This document shows positions 2,867 to 21,949 of a stretch of 64,000 nt of DNA, one piece after another. This DNA comes from a virus (Duplodnaviria > Caudoviricetes). The notes under the pieces were generated by a model that was not told where the DNA came from, made no database searches, and worked only from the letters and a program-made list of their open reading frames with translations. Position 1 is the stretch's first letter; each line of letters starts with the position of its first letter. The stretch spans positions 5,047 to 69,046 of IMG/VR virus record IMGVR_UViG_2936381700_000001; one strand, given 5' to 3'. The translations under genes were made by a program, and so were the position numbers.

Positions 2867-4059
2867 TCTGCGGCCTCCTTGGTGAAATGAGCGGGAAGGG
2901 GCGGATATCCGTTGTGCTCAACGCCGGCGAGCAGCCGGCCGGCGCGGGATTTGGTGACGCGGAACATGCCTATCGGCTGGCGCATGCCGTCGCAGCTCGG
3001 TTTGGCCTGGCGGCCGTCGACGTCGAGCCAGATGGCGTCGTTTGTTGCCATGGCGCTGTCGGTGTGGCCGTTCTCTTCGCTGGCGATGATCCAGTTGCCC
3101 CACTGCTTGAAAAGGAAGGGGACGTCGGCGATCGCGCATTGATCGCGCAGCGCATATGCCCAATGAGGGTGCATGGGACGGGCGCCGGAACCGCTTTCGC
3201 CGCCGGCGACCATCCAGCCAATGCGGGGGATTTCGTTGCAGTCTGTAATCTGATGGCAGTTGCAGCAGATGACGTCAGCGTCGCCACTGTCGGCCATCGG
3301 GCTGACGTGCTGGAGTTCAGACGAGCCGACCCAACCGCAATGCTCGCATTTGGTCATGAAGTATTCCGGGGCGATGAAGTAATGGCCTTGAGGACTTCGT
3401 GCGCGCCGTCCGGACGGAAGCCAGCGCTTCCAGTCAATCCCGCCGAGGGAAGGCTCATTAGACACCCAAAGCACGGCGGCCGGAATTTCGTGAAGGATTG
3501 AAAGGCGCTCATCGGCGCGCTTCTGATCCTCGACGGAGACGCCGAGCCAGACGTTCGGGAGCGGCAGGCCCTTCGTATGGCCGCTATGAAAATCTCCGGC
3601 CCAGCTCGCGCCTTCTATGCCATCGATCCGGAATGCCTGGTCCATCAGATGATCGAGCAGACCCGGTGCCGTCAGATATTCCCGCATCCGCTCCGGTCGC
3701 TTGGTCAGCACCTGGAAGATGTGATGGGGCGCCAGCGCCATGACAGCGAAGATCTTGTCGATCCATTCGTCCGGCACGCCTTCGGCGAAGAGATCGCCGT
3801 GGGCGCAGACGAAGATCATGCGCGGGCGCTTCCAACTGAGTGGCTGAGTGAGCCATTCCTCATTGAAGCGGACCTCGCCGGTCCAGACCGGGCCGGCCTT
3901 GCTGTCCCTCGTCAGGCCGGCGCGGCTCGGGTGATGCTGCAGGCGCGTGCCGGCGAGCTTCATGGCGTAGCAGTTGGTGCAGCCGGGGGAGACAATCGCG
4001 CAGCCGGTGATCGGGTTCCAGGTGGCGTCGGTCCATTCGATCTTGGTACCGTCAGACAT
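2863..4059 (-). CDS. DUF5131 / phage Gp37-Gp68 family radical-SAM-like protein
   Basis: KIEWTDATWNPITGCAIVSPGCTNCYA, WLGVSVEDQ, GGESG, PFLFKQWG; start at 4059 coupled to upstream stop. Confidence 0.9.
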   Translation of the reverse strand: MSDGTKIEWTDATWNPITGCAIVSPGCTNCYAMKLAGTRLQHHPSRAGLTRDSKAGPVWTGEVRFNEEWLTQPLSWKRPRMIFVCAHGDLFAEGVPDEWIDKIFAVMALAPHHIFQVLTKRPERMREYLTAPGLLDHLMDQAFRIDGIEGASWAGDFHSGHTKGLPLPNVWLGVSVEDQKRADERLSILHEIPAAVLWVSNEPSLGGIDWKRWLPSGRRARSPQGHYFIAPEYFMTKCEHCGWVGSSELQHVSPMADSGDADVICCNCHQITDCNEIPRIGWMVAGGESGSGARPMHPHWAYALRDQCAIADVPFLFKQWGNWIIASEENGHTDSAMATNDAIWLDVDGRQAKPSCDGMRQPIGMFRVTKSRAGRLLAGVEHNGYPPLPAHFTKEAAE

Positions 4060-4820: not shown

Positions 4821-5101
4821 TTCGCGCCTTCCTTGTTTCCGTTGGCCGGAACCGAACGAAGGCTAAAGAAACCCTCCGCGGCGACGGTCGCCCCGCCCAA
4901 GCAGCGGGCGAGGGTTTCGATGTTTTCGGCCATAGGGCGTGGCGAGTATTGCGACTGCAAATGAACGGCCGCAGTCAGCAGCATCATGATGCCATCTGCC
5001 GGGTCCGTTCCCGCTGAATCGCAGATGGAGCGTGTGACGGCCTCGATGGCCAGCACGCGCTGACGAGGATCGTCTATTTTGCCCGTGATTTTGATTTCCA
5101 T
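4817..5101 (-). CDS. Phage hypothetical protein
   Basis: Coupled ORF, 94 aa. Confidence 0.65.
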   Translation of the reverse strand: MEIKITGKIDDPRQRVLAIEAVTRSICDSAGTDPADGIMMLLTAAVHLQSQYSPRPMAENIETLARCLGGATVAAEGFFSLRSVPANGNKEGAK

Positions 5102-8200: not shown

Positions 8201-8446
8201 ATGCAACTTTTGATCAGTGAAGCCTCACGGCAATTTGAATTGCAGATCAGATGCGAGAACTGCATGCGCGAGAGCGCCAGGCTCATTTCAGTGCCGAGGA
8301 TTGATGGCGCGCCGAGCGATGTCGAGGAACTGCTGGAGAGTGGTTTTTTGAGGAGCTTGCGCTTCTCATGCGCAAAATGTGACAGCGCAATAGGCATTCT
8401 CGTAGCCGTCTCGCTATGTAGCGAGGTCCTTGCTGACGTTGCCTAG
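8201..8446 (+). CDS. Small Zn-ribbon protein
   Basis: GGAG RBS; CENC...CAKC; stop overlaps cI stop in CTAG. Confidence 0.7.
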   Translation: MQLLISEASRQFELQIRCENCMRESARLISVPRIDGAPSDVEELLESGFLRSLRFSCAKCDSAIGILVAVSLCSEVLADVA

Positions 8447-9156
8447 AATGGGAGGTCGTTTACGACCCTCCTCACAAGGCCGATGATTTCGACCATTGTG
8501 CCTGTGTCGGCCGCGTGGTCGCGTGGCACCACGATGGGCCTGTGCTTTGGGTTCGTCGAGCGCGGGTGGTATTCCGTTCTATCCTGGTAGAGCTCGATCT
8601 GTTTCACGGACCATTCGCGCGTCTGGCCGCCATCGCGGGTTCTTTCGACGACAACGACCATCCCATCCCGCAAAGGGGCCTCATGAGCGACATCTTCATA
8701 GGAAACACAGATGACGCGATCGCCGGGAAGGATCGGGCGCGGACGCAGATCATTCATCGAATCGCCGGAGACGTCGAAGGCCATCAGCCGAGCGCTTGGG
8801 AAGCGATCGTCCGCAGGCAGGGACAGAAGCTCTCTTTCCGATTGGTCCATGTCGTCAACTTCGCGGAACGTGCCCGCTTCGACCTTTCCGACAACGGCAA
8901 CCGGCAAAAGTCTGCCCTCGATGGGTGCTGCCTCGACGTCGCTGAGTTCCAGACCGTCGCGCAGCCAGAGGGCCGATTTACCGATTGCGGAGGCGAGTTT
9001 TTGCATTTCCTCGCCGCGGGGCTGCTCAATCTTGCCGTTCAGATATTTGTTTATGTTCGCATAAGGAATACCCGCGCGCCGTGCAAGTTCCGCACCGCTC
9101 CATCCAAGCTCGATCCTACGAGAGTCCAGTCGCTTCCACCAAGTCATAAAGCGCAT
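8443..9156 (-). CDS. cI: CI-like repressor (XRE HTH + S24 peptidase)
   Basis: GWSGAELARRAGIPYANINKYLNG; VSGDSM catalytic Ser; SVKQI Lys; divergent from cro-like gene. Confidence 0.92.
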   Translation of the reverse strand: MRFMTWWKRLDSRRIELGWSGAELARRAGIPYANINKYLNGKIEQPRGEEMQKLASAIGKSALWLRDGLELSDVEAAPIEGRLLPVAVVGKVEAGTFREVDDMDQSERELLSLPADDRFPSARLMAFDVSGDSMNDLRPRPILPGDRVICVSYEDVAHEAPLRDGMVVVVERTRDGGQTREWSVKQIELYQDRTEYHPRSTNPKHRPIVVPRDHAADTGTMVEIIGLVRRVVNDLPF

Positions 9157-9182: not shown

Positions 9183-9226
9183 TAGATTTCCCATGGCTTG
9201 AAGGTAGATTTAAAATCTAGTACAGC
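9183..9226 (+). promoter_or_regulatory. PR-like promoter/operator
   Basis: Perfect palindrome TAGATTT-A-AAATCTA 9205-9219 just downstream of TTGAAG (9198-9203); half site TAGATTT at 9183. Confidence 0.7.
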
Positions 9227-9679: not shown

Positions 9680-9768
9680 TCTCTTGATGAGCTGAGTTCT
9701 CACATTTCCGCATCGTTCCCGCCACGGGAAAAACCCGCCGGAATTCCCGGCGCGGGAAGGCTTTTGTT

Positions 9769-10508: not shown

Positions 10509-11356
10509 TGAATGCATCTGCTGCCGTTTCTGCCGCCGTCGCGCTGCGCACGATCACGCCGCTCGATTTTCCCGATCTGCCGCGCGCCGGGGTGCCGGAC
10601 TGGATGCCCGAGGTGCGCCTGGTCAAGCCCGCCGAGCTCGTCGTCGACGAAGGCTATCAGCGGGGCCTTTCCGATCGCTCCATCCGGCTGATCCGCAAGA
10701 TCGTCGCCGAATGGAGCTGGCTTGCCTTCAAGCCGCCGATCGTCGTCGAGGTCGATGCCCGGCTCCATGTGATCGACGGGCAGCACACGGCGATCGGCGC
10801 CGTCACCCATGGCGGCATTGCGCTGATACCGGTGCTGGTCGTGCGGGCGGAGGCGGTGGCTGAACGCGCCTCGGCCTTTGTGCGTCACAACCGCGACCGC
10901 ATCCAGGTGACGGCGACGCAGCTGCATGCGGCTCTCGTCGCTGCCGGCGATGAAGACGCGCTGACCATGGCGCAGGTCTGCGATCGCGCCGGCGTGACAC
11001 TGCTCAAAAATCCGCCGCCCTTCGCCAAATTCAAGCCGGGCGACAGCATGGCGGTTTCGACGATTGCCTCGGTGATCTCGCGCCGGCACGCCAGGGGCGC
11101 GCGCGAGATCCTTGAAATCTGCGTCAAGGGCAGGGCGGCGCCGGTTAGCGCCATCCTGATCCGTGCCGTCGAGCATCTTCTGTTTGCCACCGAATACAAG
11201 GGGCAGATCGAGCCCGACCGGATCTCGGCGCTGCTGCAGGCAATGCCCGCGCAGCTGGAGACCGAAGCCAAGCGGTTCGCGGCCGAGCGTAAGGTGCCGC
11301 TCTGGCGGGCGACGGCCTCGGTCATTTTCATGAACCGGAGAAAAGCGCGTGGATGA
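10505..11356 (+). CDS. ParB/Srx-like N-terminal domain protein (DUF6551-like)
   Basis: LVVDEGYQRGLS, HVIDGQHT. Confidence 0.8.
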   Translation: MMNASAAVSAAVALRTITPLDFPDLPRAGVPDWMPEVRLVKPAELVVDEGYQRGLSDRSIRLIRKIVAEWSWLAFKPPIVVEVDARLHVIDGQHTAIGAVTHGGIALIPVLVVRAEAVAERASAFVRHNRDRIQVTATQLHAALVAAGDEDALTMAQVCDRAGVTLLKNPPPFAKFKPGDSMAVSTIASVISRRHARGAREILEICVKGRAAPVSAILIRAVEHLLFATEYKGQIEPDRISALLQAMPAQLETEAKRFAAERKVPLWRATASVIFMNRRKARG

Positions 11357-11744
11357 TCTGGTCGATATCCTCCGGACAGAGAACGAGACGCTGCGCGAAC
11401 GCGTGCGGCAGCTCGAAGCTCTGCTCTTGCCGGAAGATATCGAGATCCCGATTGAGTGGCGGCTGGTCAATGCCGAGCGCCGGATCTTCGCGGCGCTGAC
11501 CCGGCGTGAGATCGTCACCAAGGACATGCTTTACGAGGCGCTCTATGGTGACCGGCTCGATCTTGACAAGGAAATCGAGATCAACTGCGTCGAAAGCCAT
11601 GTCAGCAAGCTCAAGCGCAAGGTGAAGCCGTTCGGCGTCGTCATCATCAGCCGCCGCTTCGTCGGCTACAGCCTGCTCAACCGAGAGAAATACGCCCATA
11701 CCCCCCCCGTTCCGGTAACGAAGACGGTGGCGCGGCATGGATGA
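11349..11744 (+). CDS. Coiled coil + OmpR/PhoB-type winged-helix protein (paralog 1)
   Basis: LRERVRQLEALL; VTKDMLYEALYG...VESHVSKLKRKV...VGYSL; no receiver domain. Confidence 0.85.
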   Translation: MDDLVDILRTENETLRERVRQLEALLLPEDIEIPIEWRLVNAERRIFAALTRREIVTKDMLYEALYGDRLDLDKEIEINCVESHVSKLKRKVKPFGVVIISRRFVGYSLLNREKYAHTPPVPVTKTVARHG

Positions 11745-12087
11745 TCTCGTCGACCTCCAGCGCGACCGCATCGCCTTCCTCGAAGAACGCGTCCGTCAAC
11801 TTGAGGAGGCGCTGATGCCTGCGAGCGTGATGGCGCCTATCGAATATCAGCTGACGGCGAATGAAGCGCGTGTTTTCTCGCATCTCGCCAGCCGTGACTT
11901 CGGAACGAAGCAATCGATCATGATGGCGCTCTACAGCGACCGCGCGGAAGAGCCTGAAATCAAGATCGTCGATGTGTTCGTGTGCAAGATGCGCCGCAAG
12001 CTCAAGCCGTTCGGTGTGCGGATCGAAACGATCTGGGGGCAGGGGTATCGGCTGGCGCGGCCTGGCATGGCGGAGGTGGCGGCGTGA
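11737..12087 (+). CDS. Coiled coil + CtrA-like winged-helix protein (paralog 2)
   Basis: EPEIKIVDVFVCKMRRKL...IETIWGQGY; no receiver domain. Confidence 0.88.
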   Translation: MDDLVDLQRDRIAFLEERVRQLEEALMPASVMAPIEYQLTANEARVFSHLASRDFGTKQSIMMALYSDRAEEPEIKIVDVFVCKMRRKLKPFGVRIETIWGQGYRLARPGMAEVAA

Positions 12088-13637
12088 GCGACGATACACC
12101 GATCACCATTTCTGGTCCTGGCGATCTTTCAGTCGAGACGACGCTCGGCGCCATCAAGGCTGCCGGCGACGCGGCGGCTAAAGGCATCATTCCATCGCGC
12201 ACCGACGCTTCCGATCTCGCCGCGACCATCGAGCGGGCGCGGGCGCTGCTCGACGATGGCGATTATCAGGCGGCGCTGCTGCTTTCTACAGGCGCCTACG
12301 AGCAGGCGAAGGCAGCGGCCGGCTATGCCGAGAAGGTGAAGGCAAGCCGCCAGCTGATCGACAAGGCCCGGCGCATGCAGGCGGACGCTCTGAAGATCGA
12401 AAGCGTCTGCTACGTGGCGATGGCGAATGCTGTCGACGAGGCGCAGGCGAAGGGACAGGTGGCGAAGCCGGGACAGAAGGCAAATGTCCCGGGCTCGGAC
12501 ATTTTCACGCTGGACGACGTCGGCGTCGATCGCCGGCGGCTGCTCGAGGCCCGCAAGCTGCGCGACGCTGAGGTGAAGGATCCTGGGATCGTCGAGCGGG
12601 CGATCGAGGCGCGGCTTTCGCAGGGCTTGGAGCCGAGCCGCGCCAATCTGCGCGCCGCTGTCGGCACGGCCTCCGCCAGCAAGGAAGATCGGGGCGACAA
12701 CTTCTATCAGACGCCGGCCTGCGCCACGCGCACGCTGCTCGCCTTCGAAAGCTTCTCGCCGACCATCTGGGAATCTTCCTGCGGCCTCGGCGCGATTTCG
12801 CGGGTGCTGGAAGAGGCTGGCTATGAGGTTGTTCTTACGGATCTCGTCGATCGGCAGACTGTAACGCAGCACGGCGAGCTGCAGGGCGTCGGCGATTTCC
12901 TAGCCAGCCAGCCGGAAGCACCGGGCGAGGGGCACGATATCTGCACTAATCCGCCCTATGGCGAGGTGCTGAACGATTACGTCGCGCATGCGCTGCGCGT
13001 CCACCGGCCGCGCAAGATGGCGCTGCTGCTCAACCTCAATTTCCTCTGCGGCTTCGACGACGACGCCCGCAATTTCGTCATGGACGAAAACCCGCCGGCG
13101 CGCGTCTACGTCTTCAAGCGTCGCCTGCCGATGATGCATCGCGAGGGTTATGAGGGGCCGAAGGCATCGAGCCGCATGAACACCGCCTGGTTCGTCTGGG
13201 AGCGGCAGGACGATGGCAGCTACGGCGACACGACGATCGTCAAGCGCGTCGACTGGAAGGATTACGAGGATGCGGACGCGCTGGAGCCCGGCGAGGGCGG
13301 CAATGCCAGCGGCGTGCGCTTCGAAGAGTTCAAGCGTGAGACGCCGCGCAAGACGCTCGACGAGCGCGTCGAGGAAGTCTCTTCCAGGGCTCTGCTCTGG
13401 TGCGCGGGCAAGGATGATTTTGACGCCGTTGAACTGCGCCGGGCGATCGGCGTGCGCCCGACGACTGCGGAAGGCGCCATTCACTGGATGCTGGAAAAGC
13501 GGCTTATAGACCCCGCGGGCGAAGGTCGGTTCAAGGTGGCGAGCGACGGCTGGACTGCCCTCAGGGCCACGGCGGCCGTCATCAACGATCCCAAGCTGAT
13601 CAGTCTCATCGAGCAGATCCAGGCGGTGCCCGCATGA
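12084..13637 (+). CDS. Phage amino (N6-A/N4-C) DNA methyltransferase with helical N-terminal domain and C-terminal winged helix
   Basis: FYQTP, WESSCGLG (motif I), CTNPPY (motif IV); GTG start overlapping upstream stop. Confidence 0.82.
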   Translation: MSDDTPITISGPGDLSVETTLGAIKAAGDAAAKGIIPSRTDASDLAATIERARALLDDGDYQAALLLSTGAYEQAKAAAGYAEKVKASRQLIDKARRMQADALKIESVCYVAMANAVDEAQAKGQVAKPGQKANVPGSDIFTLDDVGVDRRRLLEARKLRDAEVKDPGIVERAIEARLSQGLEPSRANLRAAVGTASASKEDRGDNFYQTPACATRTLLAFESFSPTIWESSCGLGAISRVLEEAGYEVVLTDLVDRQTVTQHGELQGVGDFLASQPEAPGEGHDICTNPPYGEVLNDYVAHALRVHRPRKMALLLNLNFLCGFDDDARNFVMDENPPARVYVFKRRLPMMHREGYEGPKASSRMNTAWFVWERQDDGSYGDTTIVKRVDWKDYEDADALEPGEGGNASGVRFEEFKRETPRKTLDERVEEVSSRALLWCAGKDDFDAVELRRAIGVRPTTAEGAIHWMLEKRLIDPAGEGRFKVASDGWTALRATAAVINDPKLISLIEQIQAVPA

Positions 13638-13984
13638 GTGATCACCAAACGCCCACACCCGATTTCTCGCCGGCCATGCTGAAGGGCTTTCTGCGCGCCC
13701 GCGTAAAGATGCAATTCTACATGGCGGCTTATCCAAATTCGCCACTGAAGGCCGCACCTGATCAGGAGCATCGCGAGGCGCGGCTGCGCGGCGAGCTGCG
13801 CAAGTTGGCGGGCGTCAGCGCCAAGGATTTCAATCGGGCATGGACGGGTCTCGGCATCGATGTCGACGCACGGCTGAAGTTGTGGCGGGCGCTCGGCGTC
13901 AGCCCGACGGCGCACGGGGTGCGTCTGATCGGGACGGACCAGCAGGAGTGGATGGCACATAGGAGGGCGGACGATGCAGCCTGA
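13634..13984 (+). CDS. Phage hypothetical protein
   Basis: Coupled ORF. Confidence 0.65.
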   Translation: MSDHQTPTPDFSPAMLKGFLRARVKMQFYMAAYPNSPLKAAPDQEHREARLRGELRKLAGVSAKDFNRAWTGLGIDVDARLKLWRALGVSPTAHGVRLIGTDQQEWMAHRRADDAA

Positions 13985-14249
13985 GATCGACCGGGCCCGC
14001 CTTGCCCGCGATGTACGCCAGTGGCTTTCCGACAACGATCTGACGACGCGCAGCGCCCAGCAGGCCTGCCCCGGCCTCAACCCCGCGATGATCTCGCGGG
14101 CGTGCAGCCAAAGCATTCTTTCGGCGGCGAGCATGCTGGCGCTCTGCGCGGCGATGAAGCGCGATCCGACCGCCTACCTGATCTTTGTCGATAAGAGAAA
14201 TCAAGCTGTTACAGCAAACGTTCATCGTGAAACACGAGGTGCGGCATGA
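13974..14249 (+). CDS. XRE-like HTH protein
   Basis: WLSDNDLTTRSAQQACPGLNPAMISRAC. Confidence 0.65.
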   Translation: MQPEIDRARLARDVRQWLSDNDLTTRSAQQACPGLNPAMISRACSQSILSAASMLALCAAMKRDPTAYLIFVDKRNQAVTANVHRETRGAA

Positions 14250-14437
14250 GCATCGAACTCGGCAGCTGGGTGCTTCCCCTCGGCGTTACCATCATCGCCT
14301 TCGGCTTTGCGCTCGCCAGCGTCAAGATAGGCGATATCGCCTACTTCAGTCGAACGATCTTCAACTTGCTGATCGTGTCGCTCGCCGCGATCGCGTCGCT
14401 GTCGACGTGGCTCGCCTGGGTTCTGGTGATCCGATGA
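14246..14437 (+). CDS. Small two-TM membrane protein
   Basis: Two hydrophobic stretches; coupled. Confidence 0.65.
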   Translation: MSIELGSWVLPLGVTIIAFGFALASVKIGDIAYFSRTIFNLLIVSLAAIASLSTWLAWVLVIR

Positions 14438-14727
14438 ACGTGCTGCCGATCATCGAAGGGCTAACAGACAGCAACGCACCGTCAGACTGGGCGCTGTGGC
14501 TGATGCGCTGCCCGCTCGGCATCATCCACCGCGAGCAGATGACGATCCGCCGGATCCTGCAACAGCGCGGCTTTGCCGCCGGCGTCGCCTATCTCGACGC
14601 GCTGCTTGCCTATTCGAACGCAACGAGACTGCCGGACGGGACATTTCCCGCGACGGTCGTGATGCCCGTGCACATGGCGGCCGGGGCAATGAGGGAAGCG
14701 GCGCGGGCCGCAGAGGGGCAAGCATGA
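14434..14727 (+). CDS. Phage hypothetical protein
   Basis: ATGA coupling at both ends. Confidence 0.65.
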   Translation: MNVLPIIEGLTDSNAPSDWALWLMRCPLGIIHREQMTIRRILQQRGFAAGVAYLDALLAYSNATRLPDGTFPATVVMPVHMAAGAMREAARAAEGQA

Positions 14728-16865
14728 ATTCGATGGCAATGCCGAAGAGTTTCGGGCTCGACAATCGCATGACCGTGGTTCTCTTCGCCGGCATGGGCGG
14801 CGGCTGCGACGGGCTAGAGGACGCAGGCTTTCACGTGCACCTCGCCGTCAATCACGATCCGCTGGCGATCGCGATGCATGAAAAGCGCCACCCGCATACG
14901 CGGCACCTGCGCTGCGACGTCTTCGAGGTCGATCCGAAGGAAGCCACGCGCGGCCGTGGCGTTCGCATCCTGCATGCCTCTCCCGACTGCACGCATTTCT
15001 CGGTCGCCAAGGGTTCCAAGCCGGTCAGCAAGCGGCGGCGCTCGCTCGCCTGGGTGATCCCGCGCTGGGCAGGGCAGGTGCGCCCCGAGGTGATCACCAT
15101 GGAGAATGTCCAGGAGATCAAGACCTGGGGTCCGCTAATCTGCAAGCGCGACAAGAAGTCGGGCAGGGCGATGCGCCGCGACGGATCGGTCGCCGCCAAG
15201 GGCGAGCGCATTCCGCTCGAAGAGCAGTGGCTGATCCCGGATCCGCGCCACAAGGGGCGCATTTGGCGCGCCTGGCTGAAGCATATGGAAGGCCTCGGCT
15301 ACAGCTTCGATCACCGCGTGCTCGTCTGCGCTGATTTTGGCATTCCGACCATCCGCAAGCGCTTCTTCGGCGTGGCGCGCGCCGACGGCGGCCAGATCTA
15401 CTGGCCGGAGCGCACGCATGCGCCGCGTGACAAGGCGAAGGCGCTCGGCCTCAAGCCGTGGGTCGGCGCGCATACGATCATCGACTGGTCGCTTCCGGTG
15501 AAATCCATCTTCGGCCGCAAGAAGCCGCTCGCCGACGCCACGCTGCGCCGGATCGCCCGCGGCGTCATGCGCTACGTCGTCAACGCCAACAAGCCGTTCA
15601 TCGTGCCGATCACCCATGCCGGCGGCGACAGGGTGCATGCGGTCGACGAGCCGCTGCGCACGCTGACGACGGCGCATCGCGGCGAGCTGATGCTCGTTGC
15701 GCCGACAATCGTCGATACAGCGCACGGCGAGGGTCAGGGGCGCGGAGTCTCTGAGTGGTCAGCCGAAGAACCGCTGCGCACGGTGGCGGCTAGCCCGGGC
15801 AAGGCGGTCATCTCGGCGCATCTGACGAAATTCCGCACCGGCTCGACCGGCTCGAATATTGAGCAACCATTGCCGACTTTCACCGCGAACAATTTCGAGA
15901 AGCGGCCGGGCGGCGCGCCTCCGCTCGGCGTCGCCGCGGTGCATCTCTCGACGATGCGGAACGCGCAGAAGCCATTCGGCGCGGCCGACGAGCCGCTGCA
16001 TACGGTCACGGCTGGCGGGGCGGGAATATCTCTCGTAGCGGCGACGATGGTGCAGACGGGTTATGGCGAGCGTGAGGGGCAAGCGCCTCGGGCGTTGGAT
16101 ATCGAGGAGCCGGTCGGAACTGTGGTGGCTGGCGGCTCAAAGGCGGCGGTCGTTGCGACGTTTCTGGCGCAGCACAACAGCGATCCGCGTGCCGACGGTT
16201 CCGTCAAGTTCCGGGCAGGGCGTGATGTGGCCGAGCCGTTGGCCACGGTCACGACTGACCATCAGCAAGCAGTCGTCGCCGCATTCATGGCGCAGCACAA
16301 TACCGGCGTTGTCGGCCACTCGGCGGAAGAGCCGCTGTCGACGATGACGACCGGCGGCGATCGCGGACAGACGCAGCAGGGCGTCGTGACGGCGGCGCTC
16401 GGTAGCCTTCGCGGAACTAATCGACATGGGCAGGACATCCGCCATCCTCTGCCGACGCAGACCTGCGGGGGCGGGCGTGGCGGGCATGAGATGCTGATCC
16501 TGCCGTTTCTGCAAACATATTACGGCTCGGGCGAAAACAGTCACGATGTCCGCGACCCGCTGCACACACTGACCGTCAACGATCGGCACGGCTTGGTCAC
16601 TGTCGTGGTCAACGGCCAGACGATGGTCATCACCGATATCTGCATGCGCATGCTCGACCCGCTCGAGGGCGCGGCGGCGCACGGCTTCGATCCGAAGAGC
16701 TTCGACCACGTGATCGAGTTCACCGACGAGAAGGGCCGGCACGTGAAGCGCAAGCCGACAAAGACCGAGCTCGGCCACCTCGTCGGCAACAGCGTGCCGA
16801 AGAAGATGATCCGCCTGCTGGCGGAGTGCAACGGACGTTACGAATTCGTCGAGGCTGCGGAATGA
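14724..16865 (+). CDS. DNA cytosine-5 methyltransferase with nine-fold repeated variable region
   Basis: LFAGMGG (I), HASPDC (IV), ENV (VI), RKRF (VIII), GNSV (X). Confidence 0.92.
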   Translation: MNSMAMPKSFGLDNRMTVVLFAGMGGGCDGLEDAGFHVHLAVNHDPLAIAMHEKRHPHTRHLRCDVFEVDPKEATRGRGVRILHASPDCTHFSVAKGSKPVSKRRRSLAWVIPRWAGQVRPEVITMENVQEIKTWGPLICKRDKKSGRAMRRDGSVAAKGERIPLEEQWLIPDPRHKGRIWRAWLKHMEGLGYSFDHRVLVCADFGIPTIRKRFFGVARADGGQIYWPERTHAPRDKAKALGLKPWVGAHTIIDWSLPVKSIFGRKKPLADATLRRIARGVMRYVVNANKPFIVPITHAGGDRVHAVDEPLRTLTTAHRGELMLVAPTIVDTAHGEGQGRGVSEWSAEEPLRTVAASPGKAVISAHLTKFRTGSTGSNIEQPLPTFTANNFEKRPGGAPPLGVAAVHLSTMRNAQKPFGAADEPLHTVTAGGAGISLVAATMVQTGYGEREGQAPRALDIEEPVGTVVAGGSKAAVVATFLAQHNSDPRADGSVKFRAGRDVAEPLATVTTDHQQAVVAAFMAQHNTGVVGHSAEEPLSTMTTGGDRGQTQQGVVTAALGSLRGTNRHGQDIRHPLPTQTCGGGRGGHEMLILPFLQTYYGSGENSHDVRDPLHTLTVNDRHGLVTVVVNGQTMVITDICMRMLDPLEGAAAHGFDPKSFDHVIEFTDEKGRHVKRKPTKTELGHLVGNSVPKKMIRLLAECNGRYEFVEAAE

Positions 16866-19483
16866 ACGATTACAGCGCCTTCCTGCGCAACAAGATGCGC
16901 ATTGCCACCGCCACCGGCTTCGACGTCCGAGAAAGCGATCTCAACCGCCAGCTTGCTCCGCATTGCCGGAAAATCGTCCAGTGGGCGCTGCGCGGCGGCC
17001 AGCGGGCAGTCTTTGCCAATTTCGGCCTGCACAAGACCTCGATCCAGATCGAACTGATGCGCAAGATCCGCCAAACCATCGGCGGCAATTGCCTGATCGT
17101 GCTTCCGCTCGGCGTGCGGCAGGAGTTCTTCGACGAGGCGGAAGAACGTTTCACGGGCGATTGCGCGGTGCGGCTCAAGTTCATCAGGTCGACGGCCGAG
17201 ATGGGCGACGAGCTCGACGGGCGCGTCGAAGGCAACCCGCTGATCTACCTGACGAACTATGAGAGTGTCCGCGAGGGCAAGATCGACGTTTCCCGCTTCA
17301 TCGCCGCCAGCCTCGACGAGGCGGCCGTCCTGCGCGGCTACGGGACAAAGACGTTCCAGACATTCCTGCCGCTGTTCGAAAGGGTGCGTTACAAGTTCGT
17401 CGCCACGGCAACGCCGAGCCCGAACCGGCTAAAGGAACTGATCCACTATGCCGGCTTCCTCGGCGTCATGGACACCGGGCAGGCCCTGACGCGTTTCTTT
17501 CAGCGCAATTCTGAGAAAGCCGGCGACCTGACGCTCTTCCCGCACAAGGAAGAGGAGTTCTGGCTGTGGGTGCATAGCTGGGCGATCTTCCTGCAGAAGC
17601 CGTCCGATCTCGGTTTCTCCGACGAGGGCTATCAGCTGCCACCCATGAAGGTGCACTGGCATGAGGTGGCGCTCGATCCGCGCTCTGCCGGATACGATCG
17701 CGATGGGCAGGGGCTGCTGATCCACAATGCGGCGCTGGGCGTGACGCAGGCAAGTCGGGCGAAGCGGGAAAGCCTCGATGCCCGCATCGCCAAGATGCGC
17801 GAACTGATCGCGCAGGATCCGGAAGCGCATCGCATCCTTTGGCACGACCTCGAGGACGAGCGCCGCGCGATCGAGGAGGCGGTTCCGGGTGTGGCCTCGA
17901 TCTACGGCTCGCAATCGATCGAACTGAACGAGGCGAATGCGCTCGGCTTCAAGCATGGCCGGATCCGCGATCTCGCCACCAAGCCGGAAATGTCCGGCGC
18001 CGGCTGCAATTTCCAGAAACACTGCCACTGGGAAATCTTCGTCGGGATCGGCTTCAAGTTTCACGACTTCATCCAGGCTATCCATCGCATCGTCCGCTTC
18101 GGCCAGGTGCATGAATGCCGGATCGACATCATCTATTCCGAGGCGGAGCGCGAGGTGCGACGCGCCATGGAGCGCAAGTGGCGCGACCATGACGAGATGA
18201 TGGAGCGGATGGCCGGGATCGTCCGCCGCTATGGGCTCGACCAGCTGCCGGTCGCCGATCTCCTGAAGCGGTCAGTCGGACTGGAGCGGCGCGTCGAGAC
18301 GGGCGATTCCTTCAAGATCGCCAATAACGACTGCGTCGAGGAGGCGCGGCTGACGGCCGAGAACTCGGTCGGTCTGCTGGTCACCTCGATCCCGTTTTCC
18401 AACCACTACGAATATACCGAGAGCTACAACGACTTCGGCCATACCGACGACAACGATCACTTCTGGTCGCAGATGGATTATCTGACGCCGGAACTCCTGC
18501 GCATCATCCAGCCCGGCCGGCTCGCCTGCATTCACGTCAAGGATCGGGTGATGTTCGGCGCCGTGACGGGCGAGGGTGTGCCGACGATTTCGCCGTTCCA
18601 CGCCGAGGCGATCTTCCACTACCTCAAGCACGGCTTTCAGTATTGCGGCATGATCACCGTCACGACCGACGTCGTTTCGGAGAACAATCAGACCTATCGG
18701 CTGACCTATTCCGAGATGATGAAGGACGCCACGAAGATGGGCGTCGGCTGCCCGGAATATGTCCTGCTCTTTCGCAAGCCGCAGACGGACCGCTCGAAGG
18801 GCTATGCCGACGAGCGGGTCGCGCATCAGCCGCCGCTCGTCATTGCCGCCGACGGCTCGCACGTGCCCTGGACGGACGGCGATCGGCGCGCGCATGTGCC
18901 TGGCAGCGGCTACACGCTGGCGCGCTGGCAGCTCGACGCGCACGCCTTCTGGCCTTCCTCTGGCAACCGCCTGCTGACGACGGACGAGATGGTGCGGATG
19001 GGGCCGAAGGTGGTCTCGGACCTGTTCAAGCAGCTGCAGGACGGCGAGGCCGTCTACGACTTTGACGAACACGTGCGGCTCGGCGAGGAGCTGGCGGCGC
19101 GCGACAATCTCTCCAAGACGTACATGACGCTCGCGCCTCGCTCCAAGGATCCGGCCGTCTGGACCGATATCGTGCGCATGCGGACGCTGAACGGCGAGCA
19201 GGCGCAGCGCAACCTCGAAAAGCACGTCTGCCCGCTGCAGATCGACATCGTCGACCGGCTGATCGAGCGGTACTCAAACCCGGGCGACAACGTCTACGAC
19301 CCCTTCGGCGGGCTGATGACGGTGCCTTATCGCGCCATCCTGAAGGGGCGGCGCGGGCAGGCCTCCGAACTCTCCGCCACCTATTTCCGCGACGGCCTGC
19401 GCTACTGCAGGGCCGCCGAAGCGAAGATCGCGGTTCCCGACATGTTCGATGTGCTCGACGCAGTGGCGGAGGCGGCTGAGTGA
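16862..19483 (+). CDS. SF2/SNF2-like helicase fused to N4/N6 DNA methyltransferase
   Basis: FGLHKT, LDEA, TATPSPN, QAIHRIVRFGQ; TSIPF, HVCPLQ, DPFGG. Confidence 0.88.
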   Translation: MNDYSAFLRNKMRIATATGFDVRESDLNRQLAPHCRKIVQWALRGGQRAVFANFGLHKTSIQIELMRKIRQTIGGNCLIVLPLGVRQEFFDEAEERFTGDCAVRLKFIRSTAEMGDELDGRVEGNPLIYLTNYESVREGKIDVSRFIAASLDEAAVLRGYGTKTFQTFLPLFERVRYKFVATATPSPNRLKELIHYAGFLGVMDTGQALTRFFQRNSEKAGDLTLFPHKEEEFWLWVHSWAIFLQKPSDLGFSDEGYQLPPMKVHWHEVALDPRSAGYDRDGQGLLIHNAALGVTQASRAKRESLDARIAKMRELIAQDPEAHRILWHDLEDERRAIEEAVPGVASIYGSQSIELNEANALGFKHGRIRDLATKPEMSGAGCNFQKHCHWEIFVGIGFKFHDFIQAIHRIVRFGQVHECRIDIIYSEAEREVRRAMERKWRDHDEMMERMAGIVRRYGLDQLPVADLLKRSVGLERRVETGDSFKIANNDCVEEARLTAENSVGLLVTSIPFSNHYEYTESYNDFGHTDDNDHFWSQMDYLTPELLRIIQPGRLACIHVKDRVMFGAVTGEGVPTISPFHAEAIFHYLKHGFQYCGMITVTTDVVSENNQTYRLTYSEMMKDATKMGVGCPEYVLLFRKPQTDRSKGYADERVAHQPPLVIAADGSHVPWTDGDRRAHVPGSGYTLARWQLDAHAFWPSSGNRLLTTDEMVRMGPKVVSDLFKQLQDGEAVYDFDEHVRLGEELAARDNLSKTYMTLAPRSKDPAVWTDIVRMRTLNGEQAQRNLEKHVCPLQIDIVDRLIERYSNPGDNVYDPFGGLMTVPYRAILKGRRGQASELSATYFRDGLRYCRAAEAKIAVPDMFDVLDAVAEAAE

Positions 19484-20305: not shown

Positions 20306-20503
20306 TCAGATGAGCCCCAGACCTTTTCGTATCTTCGCCGCCGTCTTCGGGTCTATCTCGCGGCTCGGGAGGGTCGTGAAGCGGTCTCCTAACCAGACCG
20401 TCGCATGCCCGCCCTTGCCCTTCGATTTGCTGACCCGGAAGGAAAGGCCGCGTTGTTTTGCTTCTTCCCTGAGTTCAGCGATGAAGCGATCCCGCTTGTC
20501 CAT
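20306..20503 (-). CDS. hicA: HicA family toxin
   Basis: KGKGGHATVWLGDRFTTLP GxH motif; 65 aa upstream of hicB. Confidence 0.85.
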   Translation of the reverse strand: MDKRDRFIAELREEAKQRGLSFRVSKSKGKGGHATVWLGDRFTTLPSREIDPKTAAKIRKGLGLI

Positions 20504-20530
20504 GTCCATCTCCGTTTCAATGAAAACATA

Positions 20531-20581
20531 TTCGGACATTTTTGTCCGAACGTCAAGCAAATTCGGACATTTTTGTCCGAA
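20531..20581. promoter_or_regulatory. Two identical 20-bp palindromes (likely HicB operators)
   Basis: TTCGGACATTTTTGTCCGAA at 20531-20550 and 20562-20581. Confidence 0.8.
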
Positions 20582-20605
20582 TTTTGCAAGGGTTGGAGGT
20601 GGGGC

Positions 20606-21949
20606 GTGAGCCACGAAGCCACCATGTGGGCGGTCAAGGTGCGCGGCATCAGCTGCACTGAGGCGCGTGTGCTCTGGCACCTCGCCGACTGCCACAATCC
20701 TATCTTCGGCTGCTATCCGAAGCAGGACTATCTCGCCAATGCCTGCGAGATTGACGAGCGCTCTGTGCGGCGGTCGCTGACGTCGCTGCGCGATAAGGGA
20801 CTGGTCAACTGGATCGAGCAGCGCGAGGGAAAAAACCGCAAGGCGAACCGCTATAGCCTCGGTTTCGAGGCCGGTTTCCGCCGCTTCGAAGGCAGTGATT
20901 CCGCCGAAAATGAACCGGACAATTTGTCCGCTTCAAGCGAGGCGTCAACCGGACAGGAAGGTACCCTTCAACCGGACTCAAATGACGCTTTCAACCGGAC
21001 TCCTGAGTCCTCAATAGAACCTGTAAGGGAACCTGTAATAGAACCCGTAAGAGAGAGAGGGAGCGCGCGCGAGGTTTCGGAAGATGATCCGAAAGCACTG
21101 CGGAAGCGGTTCCAGGCTCTCATCGTCGGCCGCCATGACAATCCCTGGCCGGATGTGCTCTCGTCGGCACCGGAATGGGCTTTCCAGCAGTTCGTCAAGC
21201 TTTCGCCGGAAGAGCGGCTGCGGGCCGAGGACCGGCGCGACGCTTATCTCGCTGCCTGCCCGAAGCTTCAGTCCGGCGAGCACAAAGGCAAGCCGAAGGC
21301 TGCGGCGCTCGGCGTCTATCTCCGCGATAAGATGTTTGACCTCGTCGAGGCGATCGCACCTCAGGCCGTCAGCCGGCAGGCCGAGAAGCGCCGGCAGGAG
21401 GAAAGCATACCAGTCGCGCCTTTCGGGCCGATTTGGGCGGGCAAGCGGGCGCTGGCGCTGCTCGACGGCCCGGTGGCGATAGACCTGCCCGATAACCTCT
21501 TCGAGCTCGCGGTCGAGACATACAATCGCCTGCGCCGCTCAAGTGAAACCACGGCCAGGACCTGGGCCAACAATCGCGGCATCACCGTTGATGGCAACGA
21601 ATTGGTGTTTCCGGATGACTACCGTGTCCAGGAGCGCCGGCGCCGGGAGATCGACAGCGGTTATCCCGAGGCGCACGCGCTCGACAGGCTTGTGAAGGAA
21701 CGCAGCAAGGGCTCCGCCGATCCGCGCTTCGCAATGCTCTCAGAACTCTGCGAGGCCGTGCCTGTGGGCTCGGAAACGTACGAACGATGGCGCGCCTATC
21801 ACCTGCAGATGAACTGGCCATTCGTCCCGGATCCCGGTGGCATGCGAGTGGTCTACTTCCCCAAGGGGGGGCCGGAAGGGCTTGAAGAGTTTGAACGCGC
21901 GGCGAACGCGGCTTTGATGATGGAGCGGGGCGATGACCATGCAGTTTAG
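20606..21949 (+). CDS. Phage replication initiator (N-terminal winged HTH)
   Basis: EARVLWHLADCHN...CYPKQDYLANACEIDERSVRRSLTSL; internal iterons; GGAGGT RBS. Confidence 0.85.
   Translation: MSHEATMWAVKVRGISCTEARVLWHLADCHNPIFGCYPKQDYLANACEIDERSVRRSLTSLRDKGLVNWIEQREGKNRKANRYSLGFEAGFRRFEGSDSAENEPDNLSASSEASTGQEGTLQPDSNDAFNRTPESSIEPVREPVIEPVRERGSAREVSEDDPKALRKRFQALIVGRHDNPWPDVLSSAPEWAFQQFVKLSPEERLRAEDRRDAYLAACPKLQSGEHKGKPKAAALGVYLRDKMFDLVEAIAPQAVSRQAEKRRQEESIPVAPFGPIWAGKRALALLDGPVAIDLPDNLFELAVETYNRLRRSSETTARTWANNRGITVDGNELVFPDDYRVQERRRREIDSGYPEAHALDRLVKERSKGSADPRFAMLSELCEAVPVGSETYERWRAYHLQMNWPFVPDPGGMRVVYFPKGGPEGLEEFERAANAALMMERGDDHAV
20911..21000 (+). repeat. Replication origin iterons inside the initiator gene
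   Basis: TCAACCGGAC at 20945, 20968, 20991 (23-bp period) and TGAACCGGAC at 20911. Confidence 0.8.

Follow-up and report, generated by a model that had tools for sequence, protein, structure and literature searches.

A tandem pair of predicted receiver-less winged-helix proteins, one of apparent CtrA lineage, coupled to a ParB-like gene in a temperate Rhizobium-type prophage

A lambdoid, temperate, Rhizobium-type prophage, analysed here as a stretch of 64,000 nucleotides (the window; positions 5,047 to 69,046 of the 69 kb IMG/VR record IMGVR_UViG_2936381700_000001, classed as an integrated provirus), carries two adjacent genes, called here copy 1 (wH1) and copy 2 (wH2), immediately downstream of a gene for a ParB/Noc/KorB-like protein (Table 1). 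Each encodes a small protein with an N-terminal heptad helix followed by an OmpR-type winged helix-turn-helix (wHTH) domain, an anatomy that we assign with high confidence for both. An initial annotation, made from the sequence, had described the pair as paralogs with almost the same N-terminus, in which a heptad coiled coil is fused to an OmpR-type winged helix lacking a receiver domain, and this description was borne out. The open reading frames lie where it had placed them, and the two proteins are 46% identical over 109 residues, with a near-identical start (MDDLVD...ERVRQLE). Both score above the gathering threshold of Pfam Trans_reg_C (PF00486; 26.2 bits), and this was the only Pfam domain found in either protein, with no receiver domain in copy 1 or copy 2. 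The heptad pattern is also present; it is the single line of evidence for the predicted coiled coil.

Both copies are real genes under purifying selection, with ratios of nonsynonymous to synonymous substitution rates (dN/dS), calculated against orthologues in related prophages, of 0.25-0.31 for copy 1 and 0.11-0.21 for copy 2. The ParB-like gene ends 8 nucleotides (nt) inside copy 1 (GTGGATGA), copy 1 likewise ends 8 nt inside copy 2 (ATGGATGA), and the following gene, an NPPY-type DNA methyltransferase, begins with a GTG that overlaps the stop of copy 2 (GTGA). Because each start overlaps the preceding stop, the four genes between 10505 and 13637 form one translationally coupled string. The two copies have not diverged to the same extent. 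As had been noted, the recognition helix of copy 1 has changed (EINCVESHVSKLKRKV): it reads ESHVSKLKRK, is followed by RRFVGY where the wing of copy 2 has IWGQGY, and gives a weak match to CtrA (27% identity over 44 residues, BLASTP). Copy 1 ends in ...ARHG, without Ala-Ala, whereas copy 2 ends in ...EVAA.

An AlphaFold2 model of copy 2 (mean predicted local distance difference test score, pLDDT, of 81, from a 38-sequence alignment) comprises a long helix at residues 2-26 (pLDDT 88), a weaker linker, helices at residues 41-51, 58-66 and 76-92, a beta hairpin (96-106), and a disordered tail (110-116, pLDDT below 50). The three helices and the hairpin are predicted to adopt the OmpR/PhoB fold, and the best PDB matches returned by Foldseek were the DNA-binding domains of ArlR, SaeR, AdeR and PhoB (about 2 Å root-mean-square deviation over about 74 columns). 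A four-stranded beta-sheet ahead of helix 1 is missing from the model, which has no strands before helix 41-51, and the Pfam Trans_reg_C match begins at profile position 4-6. Neither copy 2 nor the ParB-like protein, queried as a single sequence, had a direct sequence match in the PDB.

The N-terminal helix has a leucine-zipper-like pattern of the kind that would form dimers. Its a/d positions, L8, N/I12, L15, V/I19, L22 and L26, are conserved across 84 members of the family described below, and the charged positions R16, E17, R18 and E23 are as conserved as those of the core. An Asn at an 'a' position is a hallmark of parallel dimeric zippers, and 45 of 83 members have one at position 12. The initial annotation had left open whether the proteins form homo- or heterodimers. 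As copy 1 carries Asn and copy 2 Ile at this same core position, homodimers are mildly favoured over the heterodimer; the preference is weak, and the Asn/Ile split fails in some other tandem pairs.

CtrA is the central cell-cycle switch of Alphaproteobacteria, including rhizobia, Brucella, Caulobacter and roseobacters; it binds TTAA-N7-TTAA, and phosphorylation and proteolysis by ClpXP normally control its activity. The initial annotation had compared copy 2 with the corresponding CtrA strings. We retrieved true CtrA genes, all above the NCBIfam cut-off, from five genomes that also carry relatives of the phage family, Rhizobium, Mesorhizobium, Bosea and Brevundimonas genomes among them. Their DNA-binding region reads EPELKIIDVFICKLRKKL...IETVWGRGY, in agreement with the strings given there, and the counts given for copy 2, 13/18 positions in the recognition helix and 7/9 in the wing, are right. 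In BLASTP, copy 2 is 42% identical to the DNA-binding domain of Rhizobium CtrA over 77 residues (E 6e-15), the alignment starting at CtrA residue 149, in helix 1. The best NCBIfam model for copy 2 is CtrA (NF045991; 44.7 bits versus 22.3 for the next, PhoP), at a score below the equivalog cut-off of 350 bits; copy 1 did not match the CtrA model. In its recognition helix, copy 2 has the F, C and K typical of CtrA, at positions where 21 other OmpR-family regulators from the same genomes have H/Y, S/R/G and R, respectively.

These affinities were also recovered by phylogeny, which had been suggested as a way to tell CtrA relatives from generic OmpR-type output domains. In a maximum-likelihood tree of 122 winged-helix domains (87 columns, quick method), the 21 other OmpR-family regulators fell on one side (Shimodaira-Hasegawa-like approximate likelihood ratio test, SH-aLRT, 86/93) and CtrA and the phage proteins, copy 2 included, on the other. 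There, the zipper family and three proteins of isolated phages formed a 78-row group (SH-aLRT 96), and the true CtrAs a separate group (SH-aLRT 85). The sequence comparisons thus place copy 2 as a receiver-less protein of the CtrA lineage, and its phage family as a sister lineage of CtrA rather than a recent copy of any host gene. The suggestion that both members of the pair are CtrA-like therefore stands for copy 2 and fails for copy 1, which has another recognition helix, another wing and no Ala-Ala tail.

Relatives were collected from GTDB genomes and from IMG/VR, 80 loci from each source, and the IMG/VR scan confirmed relatives in about 199 viral contigs or candidate stretches; the non-redundant set, dereplicated at 90%, comprises 99 members. 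They constitute a widespread family of small, predicted DNA-binding proteins of temperate alphaproteobacterial phages, with an amphipathic heptad helix of about 25 residues, a CtrA-lineage winged helix that has neither receiver nor N-terminal beta-sheet, usually a disordered Ala-Ala tail, and a position directly behind, and coupled to, a DUF6551 gene. The hosts span at least four orders, mainly Hyphomicrobiales, Rhodobacterales, Caulobacterales and Sphingomonadales, in whose prophages the genes reside. The family is almost absent from isolated phages, where matches were at the level of the wHTH alone, and had no real match among the 72,556 plasmids of PLSDB, the only two matches being weak and to response regulators on megaplasmids. 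Of 84 diverse members, 66-78 retain each of the CtrA-typical residues K76, F81, C83, K84 and W100, whereas the sequences of helices 1 and 2 vary; the motif KIVDVF[VI]CK is present in 67 of the 99. Tandem duplication is limited to a subset of lineages, and wH1-type copies form a 7-row clade (SH-aLRT 99) nested within the family; copy 1 is a diverged duplicate, and the tandem pair is lineage-specific.

A terminal Ala-Ala of the kind seen in the ssrA tag and Caulobacter CtrA is a classical signal of the ClpXP type. Fifty-two of the 99 members, copy 2 among them, end in Ala-Ala and 68 in Ala, where about 1% would be expected from composition; wH1-type copies mostly end in ...HG. CtrA itself ends in ...TA, ...SA or ...PA in Rhizobiales and in ...VAA in Brevundimonas. 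The same kind of wHTH also occurs in longer relatives on other contigs (P0121, P0122, P0124-P0126), several of which end in AA: in P0122 an unassigned N-terminal region precedes the zipper-wHTH, in P0124 and P0126 domains PF23872/PF17338 precede the wHTH, and P0125 and proteins of the phage PmaS-R3 type have a GafA-like DUF6456 domain.

The ParB-like protein has an invariant D91-G92-Q93-H94 (DGQH) motif, which is not the canonical GxxR box. The best PDB matches of its AlphaFold2 model (pLDDT 89), ParB-CDP, Noc and KorB, covered both the nucleotide-binding fold at the N-terminus and the helical domain after it, and the KorB-KorA co-complex of plasmid RK2 (8qa9) was also among the fold matches; template modelling (TM) scores are low because the orientations of the domains differ. 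In 82 of the 99 members, the gene immediately upstream, in the same orientation, encodes a homologue (tblastn with the neighbouring genes from the window), and some of the exceptions are true CtrA genes misclassified by the start-codon rule. The initial annotation had taken the tandem pair as the unit; this needs revision, as the conserved unit is one zipper-wHTH gene coupled to an upstream ParB-like gene. Phage DUF6551 proteins have been reported to bind cytidine triphosphate (CTP) or ATP (bioRxiv 10.1101/2025.10.10.680097, 2025 preprint). On another contig, the first ~103 residues of the ParB-like protein are fused in frame to the zipper-wHTH (P0121). This fusion looks like a deletion product, and we set it aside as evidence of an interaction.

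Table 1. Positions, in window coordinates, of the module and of the early control region and methylase gene that flank it (aa, amino acids).
Feature	Position (nt)	Strand	Evidence or remark
cI repressor	8443-9156	-	phrog_4
cI/cro operator: palindrome TAGATTTAAAATCTA and GTAGATTT half-site	9183-9220	.	sequence inspection
PR-like promoter (putative)	within 9183-9220		overlaps operator; promoter scan
GC-rich hairpin followed by TTTTGTT	9744-9765 (hairpin 9744-9758)		putative tR1-like terminator, just 5' of first gene after cro
ParB/Noc/KorB-like gene, 283 aa	10505..11356	+	Pfam DUF6551, 31.2 bits; phrog_1033 'ParB-like partition protein'
Copy 1 (wH1), GTG start, 131 aa	11349..11744	+	Trans_reg_C, 27.5 bits
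Copy 1 zipper-like helix, about residues 2-27	11352-11429	+	
Copy 1 diverged OmpR-type winged helix, residues 39-109	11463-11675	+	
Copy 2 (wH2), ATG start, 116 aa	11737..12087	+	Trans_reg_C, 38.4 bits
Copy 2 zipper-like helix, residues 2-26	11740-11814	+	
Copy 2 CtrA-type winged helix, residues 38-107	11848-12057	+	
Copy 2 recognition helix KIVDVFVCKMRRKLKPF, residues 76-92	11962..12012	+	AlphaFold2 model, alignment
Copy 2 C-terminal Ala-Ala	12079..12084	+	in disordered tail, residues 110-116
NPPY N6-adenine DNA methyltransferase	12084..13637	+	phrog_799, E 1e-117

The ParB-like gene and the two wHTH genes sit in the early rightward, that is early lytic, operon, downstream of cI/cro. The order of genes in the window is cI, the operator with a PR-like promoter, cro, the terminator-like hairpin and two small genes, then the ParB-like gene, copy 1, copy 2, the NPPY adenine methylase, a C5 methylase, a helicase-methylase and a replication initiator, beyond which lie the structural genes (terminase, portal, capsid and tail). 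A promoter scan found a single sigma-70-like match upstream of the module, overlapping the cI/cro operator, and no promoter-like site inside the cassette formed by the ParB-like gene and the two wHTH genes, so that its expression is expected only after derepression. The closest phages, Rhizobium phage PPF1 (82% nucleotide identity) and Sinorhizobium phages phi2LM21 and phi3LM21, share a syntenic backbone with the prophage and lack all three genes; the trio is therefore an exchangeable cassette. PPF1 carries at the same position an unrelated gene for a hypothetical protein of 157 aa (PPF1_80, 3030-3503 of locus L001); cassettes are exchanged at this slot of the early operon.

The NPPY methylase is 59% identical to Phi2LM21_p21 and 54% to Phi3LM21_p21, both of which methylate GANTC experimentally, as the host CcrM does (PMC5537653). 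It is a neighbour in this phage lineage and no conserved member of the module: at ten other loci the gene downstream encodes GemA, an MT-A70 methylase (two loci), a primase-like protein, an AAA_25 helicase, DnaA, an SNF2 helicase or, in three, an unassigned product. The DnaA homologue, in an Ancylobacter prophage (L025, 8989-10701), is full-length, with DnaA_N, ATPase and C-terminal HTH domains, and lies a few hundred bases downstream of the ParB-like/zipper-wHTH pair. In the window, three DNA methyltransferase genes (the NPPY enzyme, the C5 enzyme and a helicase-methylase fusion) follow one another in one early operon (12084-19483); the second, of 789 aa, contains five internal repeats of ~30 nt (15639-16574). 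The genes examined around them showed no sign of a restriction nuclease, and a PADLOC scan of the four coupled genes for defence systems gave no matches. Further downstream, two tandem 27-nt repeats (20524-20581), each with an inverted repeat TTCGGACA-TTTT-TGTCCGAA, lie inside the 5' part of the replication-initiator gene (20405-21949; O-like, phrog_270) and are candidate origin iterons.

A search for DNA targets agreed with the initial annotation, which had spotted no perfect CtrA box by eye: the 64-kb window contains no match to TTAA-N7-TTAA and none to TTAACCAT. Boxes with one mismatch numbered five versus 2.3 expected, which is no enrichment, and the sole one in the early control region (9199) is part of the cI/cro operator palindrome. 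TTAA tetramers occur 27 times in the whole window, two of them in intergenic gaps of the prophage. Near 74 related loci there was one perfect box versus 1.6 expected, again no enrichment; with counts at chance level in the window and around these loci, CtrA boxes were ruled out as targets on the phage. No repeats that could serve as binding sites were found near the module, the sole clean repeat being that at 20524-20581. Because the phage lacks such sites, host sites would be the likeliest targets if copy 2 keeps the specificity of CtrA. That phages of four host orders keep the DNA-reading residues nearly unchanged likewise fits a target conserved among hosts better than operators specific to each phage. 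We infer host targets for copy 2 from these sequence patterns.

Phage proteins of this general kind are known. Roseophage RDJL Phi 1 has been noted to carry a version of CtrA in which the receiver is absent and the DNA-binding domain kept (Fogg 2019, PMC6363796). Its gp37 (151 aa, PHROG 31800) is annotated 'CtrA' in GenBank, and the IMG pipeline automatically gives the same label to many members of the zipper family. Copy 2 matches phrog_31800 (E 2.5e-14) and, in tblastn, the RDJL phages at 47% identity, and like gp37 and its counterparts in Paracoccus phage vB_PmaS-R3, Roseobacter phage RDJL3 and Rhodobacter phage RcPutin (gp59) it is a phage-borne, receiver-less wHTH of the CtrA lineage; RcPutin gp59 and the PmaS-R3-like protein also end in AA. 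However, none of these proteins has a zipper helix or a ParB-like partner. The wHTH forms the N-terminus of gp37 and is followed by an extension; proteins of the PmaS-R3 type start with a domain of ~110 aa (GafA-like DUF6456 in the homologue P0125). A ParB link was ruled out for the roseophage context, as the RDJL Phi 1 gene lies between genes for a GafA-like (DUF6456) and a DUF6477 protein. In the literature on phage-encoded CtrA mimics we found only the remark of Fogg 2019, Huang 2011 being silent on the gene, and we found no paper on the zipper-CtrA-wHTH architecture, the Ala-Ala tail or the coupling to DUF6551. Receiver-less CtrA-lineage regulators of phages are therefore known, and the zipper architecture, the ParB-fold partner, the degron-like tail and the diverged tandem duplicate are new here.

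Compared with CtrA itself (NF045991, K13584), its nearest neighbour in the tree, copy 2 shares the winged helix, with CtrA-typical recognition helix and wing, and an Ala-Ala end like that of Caulobacterales CtrA (Brevundimonas ...VAA). It differs in the absence of the receiver, of the phospho-Asp and of the N-terminal beta-sheet of the DNA-binding domain, in length (116 versus about 233 aa), and in being phage-borne, coupled to a ParB-like gene and in a separate clade; copy 1 lacks even the CtrA signature. An analogy can be drawn with plasmid RK2, where KorB is a ParB-family CTP-dependent clamp. In both systems a small site-specific DNA binder (predicted as such here) is encoded beside a ParB-fold gene, KorA being dimeric and the phage protein having a zipper pattern. 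It is an analogy only, since there is no sequence relationship and KorA is a classical HTH protein with a C-terminal dimerization domain. The CcrM-mimic methylases Phi2LM21_p21 and Phi3LM21_p21 provide a parallel of another sort, in that temperate alphaproteobacterial phages copy a host cell-cycle function within an early/replication module; protein and activity are different, and the link of such a methylase to wHTH genes is specific to the present lineage.

We tentatively favour, at a little short of an even chance, a reading in which copy 2 is a short-lived early-lytic protein, constitutively dimeric and CtrA-like in its DNA specificity, that works with the ParB-like partner at CtrA sites of the host. 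Upon induction or infection, copy 2 would be made from the early operon, and the zipper would keep it dimeric, so that phosphorylation would not be needed. Because the DNA-reading residues of CtrA are kept, it should occupy CtrA-type (TTAA-containing) sites, most likely at host CtrA-controlled promoters and at the replication origin, which would thereby be uncoupled from the cell-cycle phosphorelay. The initial annotation had proposed that the proteins could block replication initiation or division of the host, or rewire its pilus and flagellum genes, during lytic growth. The Ala-Ala tail would make it short-lived through ClpXP, and the ParB-like protein probably acts with it on DNA. Copy 1 would be a retained, faster-evolving and neofunctionalised duplicate, whose DNA specificity is probably different because its recognition helix has changed. 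A more ambitious version strikes us as doubtful: a two-part device in which the wHTH dimer, independent of the phosphorelay, would sit on host CtrA boxes at the origin and at cell-cycle promoters and load or anchor an NTP-dependent (nucleoside triphosphate-dependent) ParB-fold protein, so that, together with the GANTC methylase as a CcrM mimic, the early operon would take over all host cell-cycle marks at once.

Several points weigh against action of copy 2 at host CtrA sites. The close association with the ParB-like gene is explained by a self-contained phage module for DNA transactions no less readily than by host mimicry. Related phage proteins combine the same wHTH with GafA-like or other domains at the N-terminus, which suggests that phages use it as a DNA-binding module in general. 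The phage clade is sister to CtrA and not nested within it, which implies a long independent history, and few branches of the quick-method, 87-column tree are strongly supported. Helices 1 and 2 are unlike those of CtrA and the N-terminal beta-sheet is missing, so the specificity could differ. The PDB holds the receiver domain of CtrA and no structure of its DNA-binding domain, and the identity of the DNA-reading residues is thus deduced from the alignment and from homologues such as PhoB. Finally, OmpR-family proteins sit head to tail on direct repeats, an arrangement that a symmetric dimer held by a zipper may fail to reproduce.

The main alternative, which takes up several of these points and which we consider possible though unlikely, is that of a KorA/KorB-like regulator internal to the phage: the zipper-wHTH dimer would bind phage sites other than CtrA boxes and recruit or trap the NTP-dependent ParB-like protein, controlling early or late transcription or replication, and the resemblance to CtrA would reflect ancestry only. 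The ParB/Noc/KorB-fold gene that is almost always next door and translationally coupled, with KorB-KorA among its fold matches, speaks for such a role, as do the constant location of the module in the early/replication region, by primase, DnaA, helicase, GemA or methylase genes, and the fusions of the same wHTH to phage domains elsewhere; the conserved R16, E17, R18 and E23 would fit a partner-binding surface. However, there are no repeated candidate sites by the module, the overlapping genes leave no intergenic space for an operator within it, and the recognition helices of regulators that act on phage operators usually vary from one phage to the next, whereas KIVDVF[VI]CK and the wing are near-constant across four host orders. 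A purely plasmid-like role, in which the wHTH would be the centromere binder of a partition system for an extrachromosomal prophage, could be read from the ParB fold and the phrog_1033 label, and is very unlikely: scans of the genes beside the module here, and of those downstream of it in ten other loci, turned up no ParA homologue, a search around the module revealed no repeat array, and the record is classed as an integrated provirus. The lack of a real match in PLSDB led us to discard plasmid partition.

The methylase genes raise the further question of whether the wHTH proteins act like the C-proteins of restriction-modification systems, setting the expression of downstream orphan methyltransferases. 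The overlap of copy 2 with the GANTC-type methylase, the two methylase genes beyond it and the MT-A70 methylases at two other loci could be so explained, yet the gene downstream varies across ten loci while the ParB-like gene is the conserved partner, and PPF1, phi2LM21 and phi3LM21 have the same methylase without the wHTH genes; we therefore rejected this idea on the variability of the downstream genes and regard it as highly improbable. Expression from the resident prophage could instead serve lysogenic conversion or superinfection exclusion, by damping CtrA-dependent pili and flagella, which are receptors of many alphaproteobacterial phages. CtrA is established as a regulator of pilus and flagellar genes. 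Host CtrA has also been tied to phage biology and binds phage genomes (PMC9437464). We nonetheless give this explanation very little weight, for the genes have no promoter-like site of their own and lie in the repressed early operon, behind the PR-like promoter and the terminator-like hairpin, and a ClpXP-type tail better suits a transient than a standing factor.

If copy 2 indeed acts on host CtrA sites, it would be a natural constitutive CtrA DNA-binding module, in which the DNA-reading surface and the degradation-type tail of CtrA were kept and the phospho-switch was swapped for a zipper. The tandem pair would offer a natural experiment, in which copy 2 keeps the CtrA helix and tail and copy 1 has lost both, and the zipper-CtrA family would be a tool to ask what occupancy of CtrA sites does without phosphorylation. 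The coupling to the ParB-like gene gives the orphan DUF6551 family a concrete candidate partner. More broadly, the family may exemplify the takeover of host cell-cycle control by phages.

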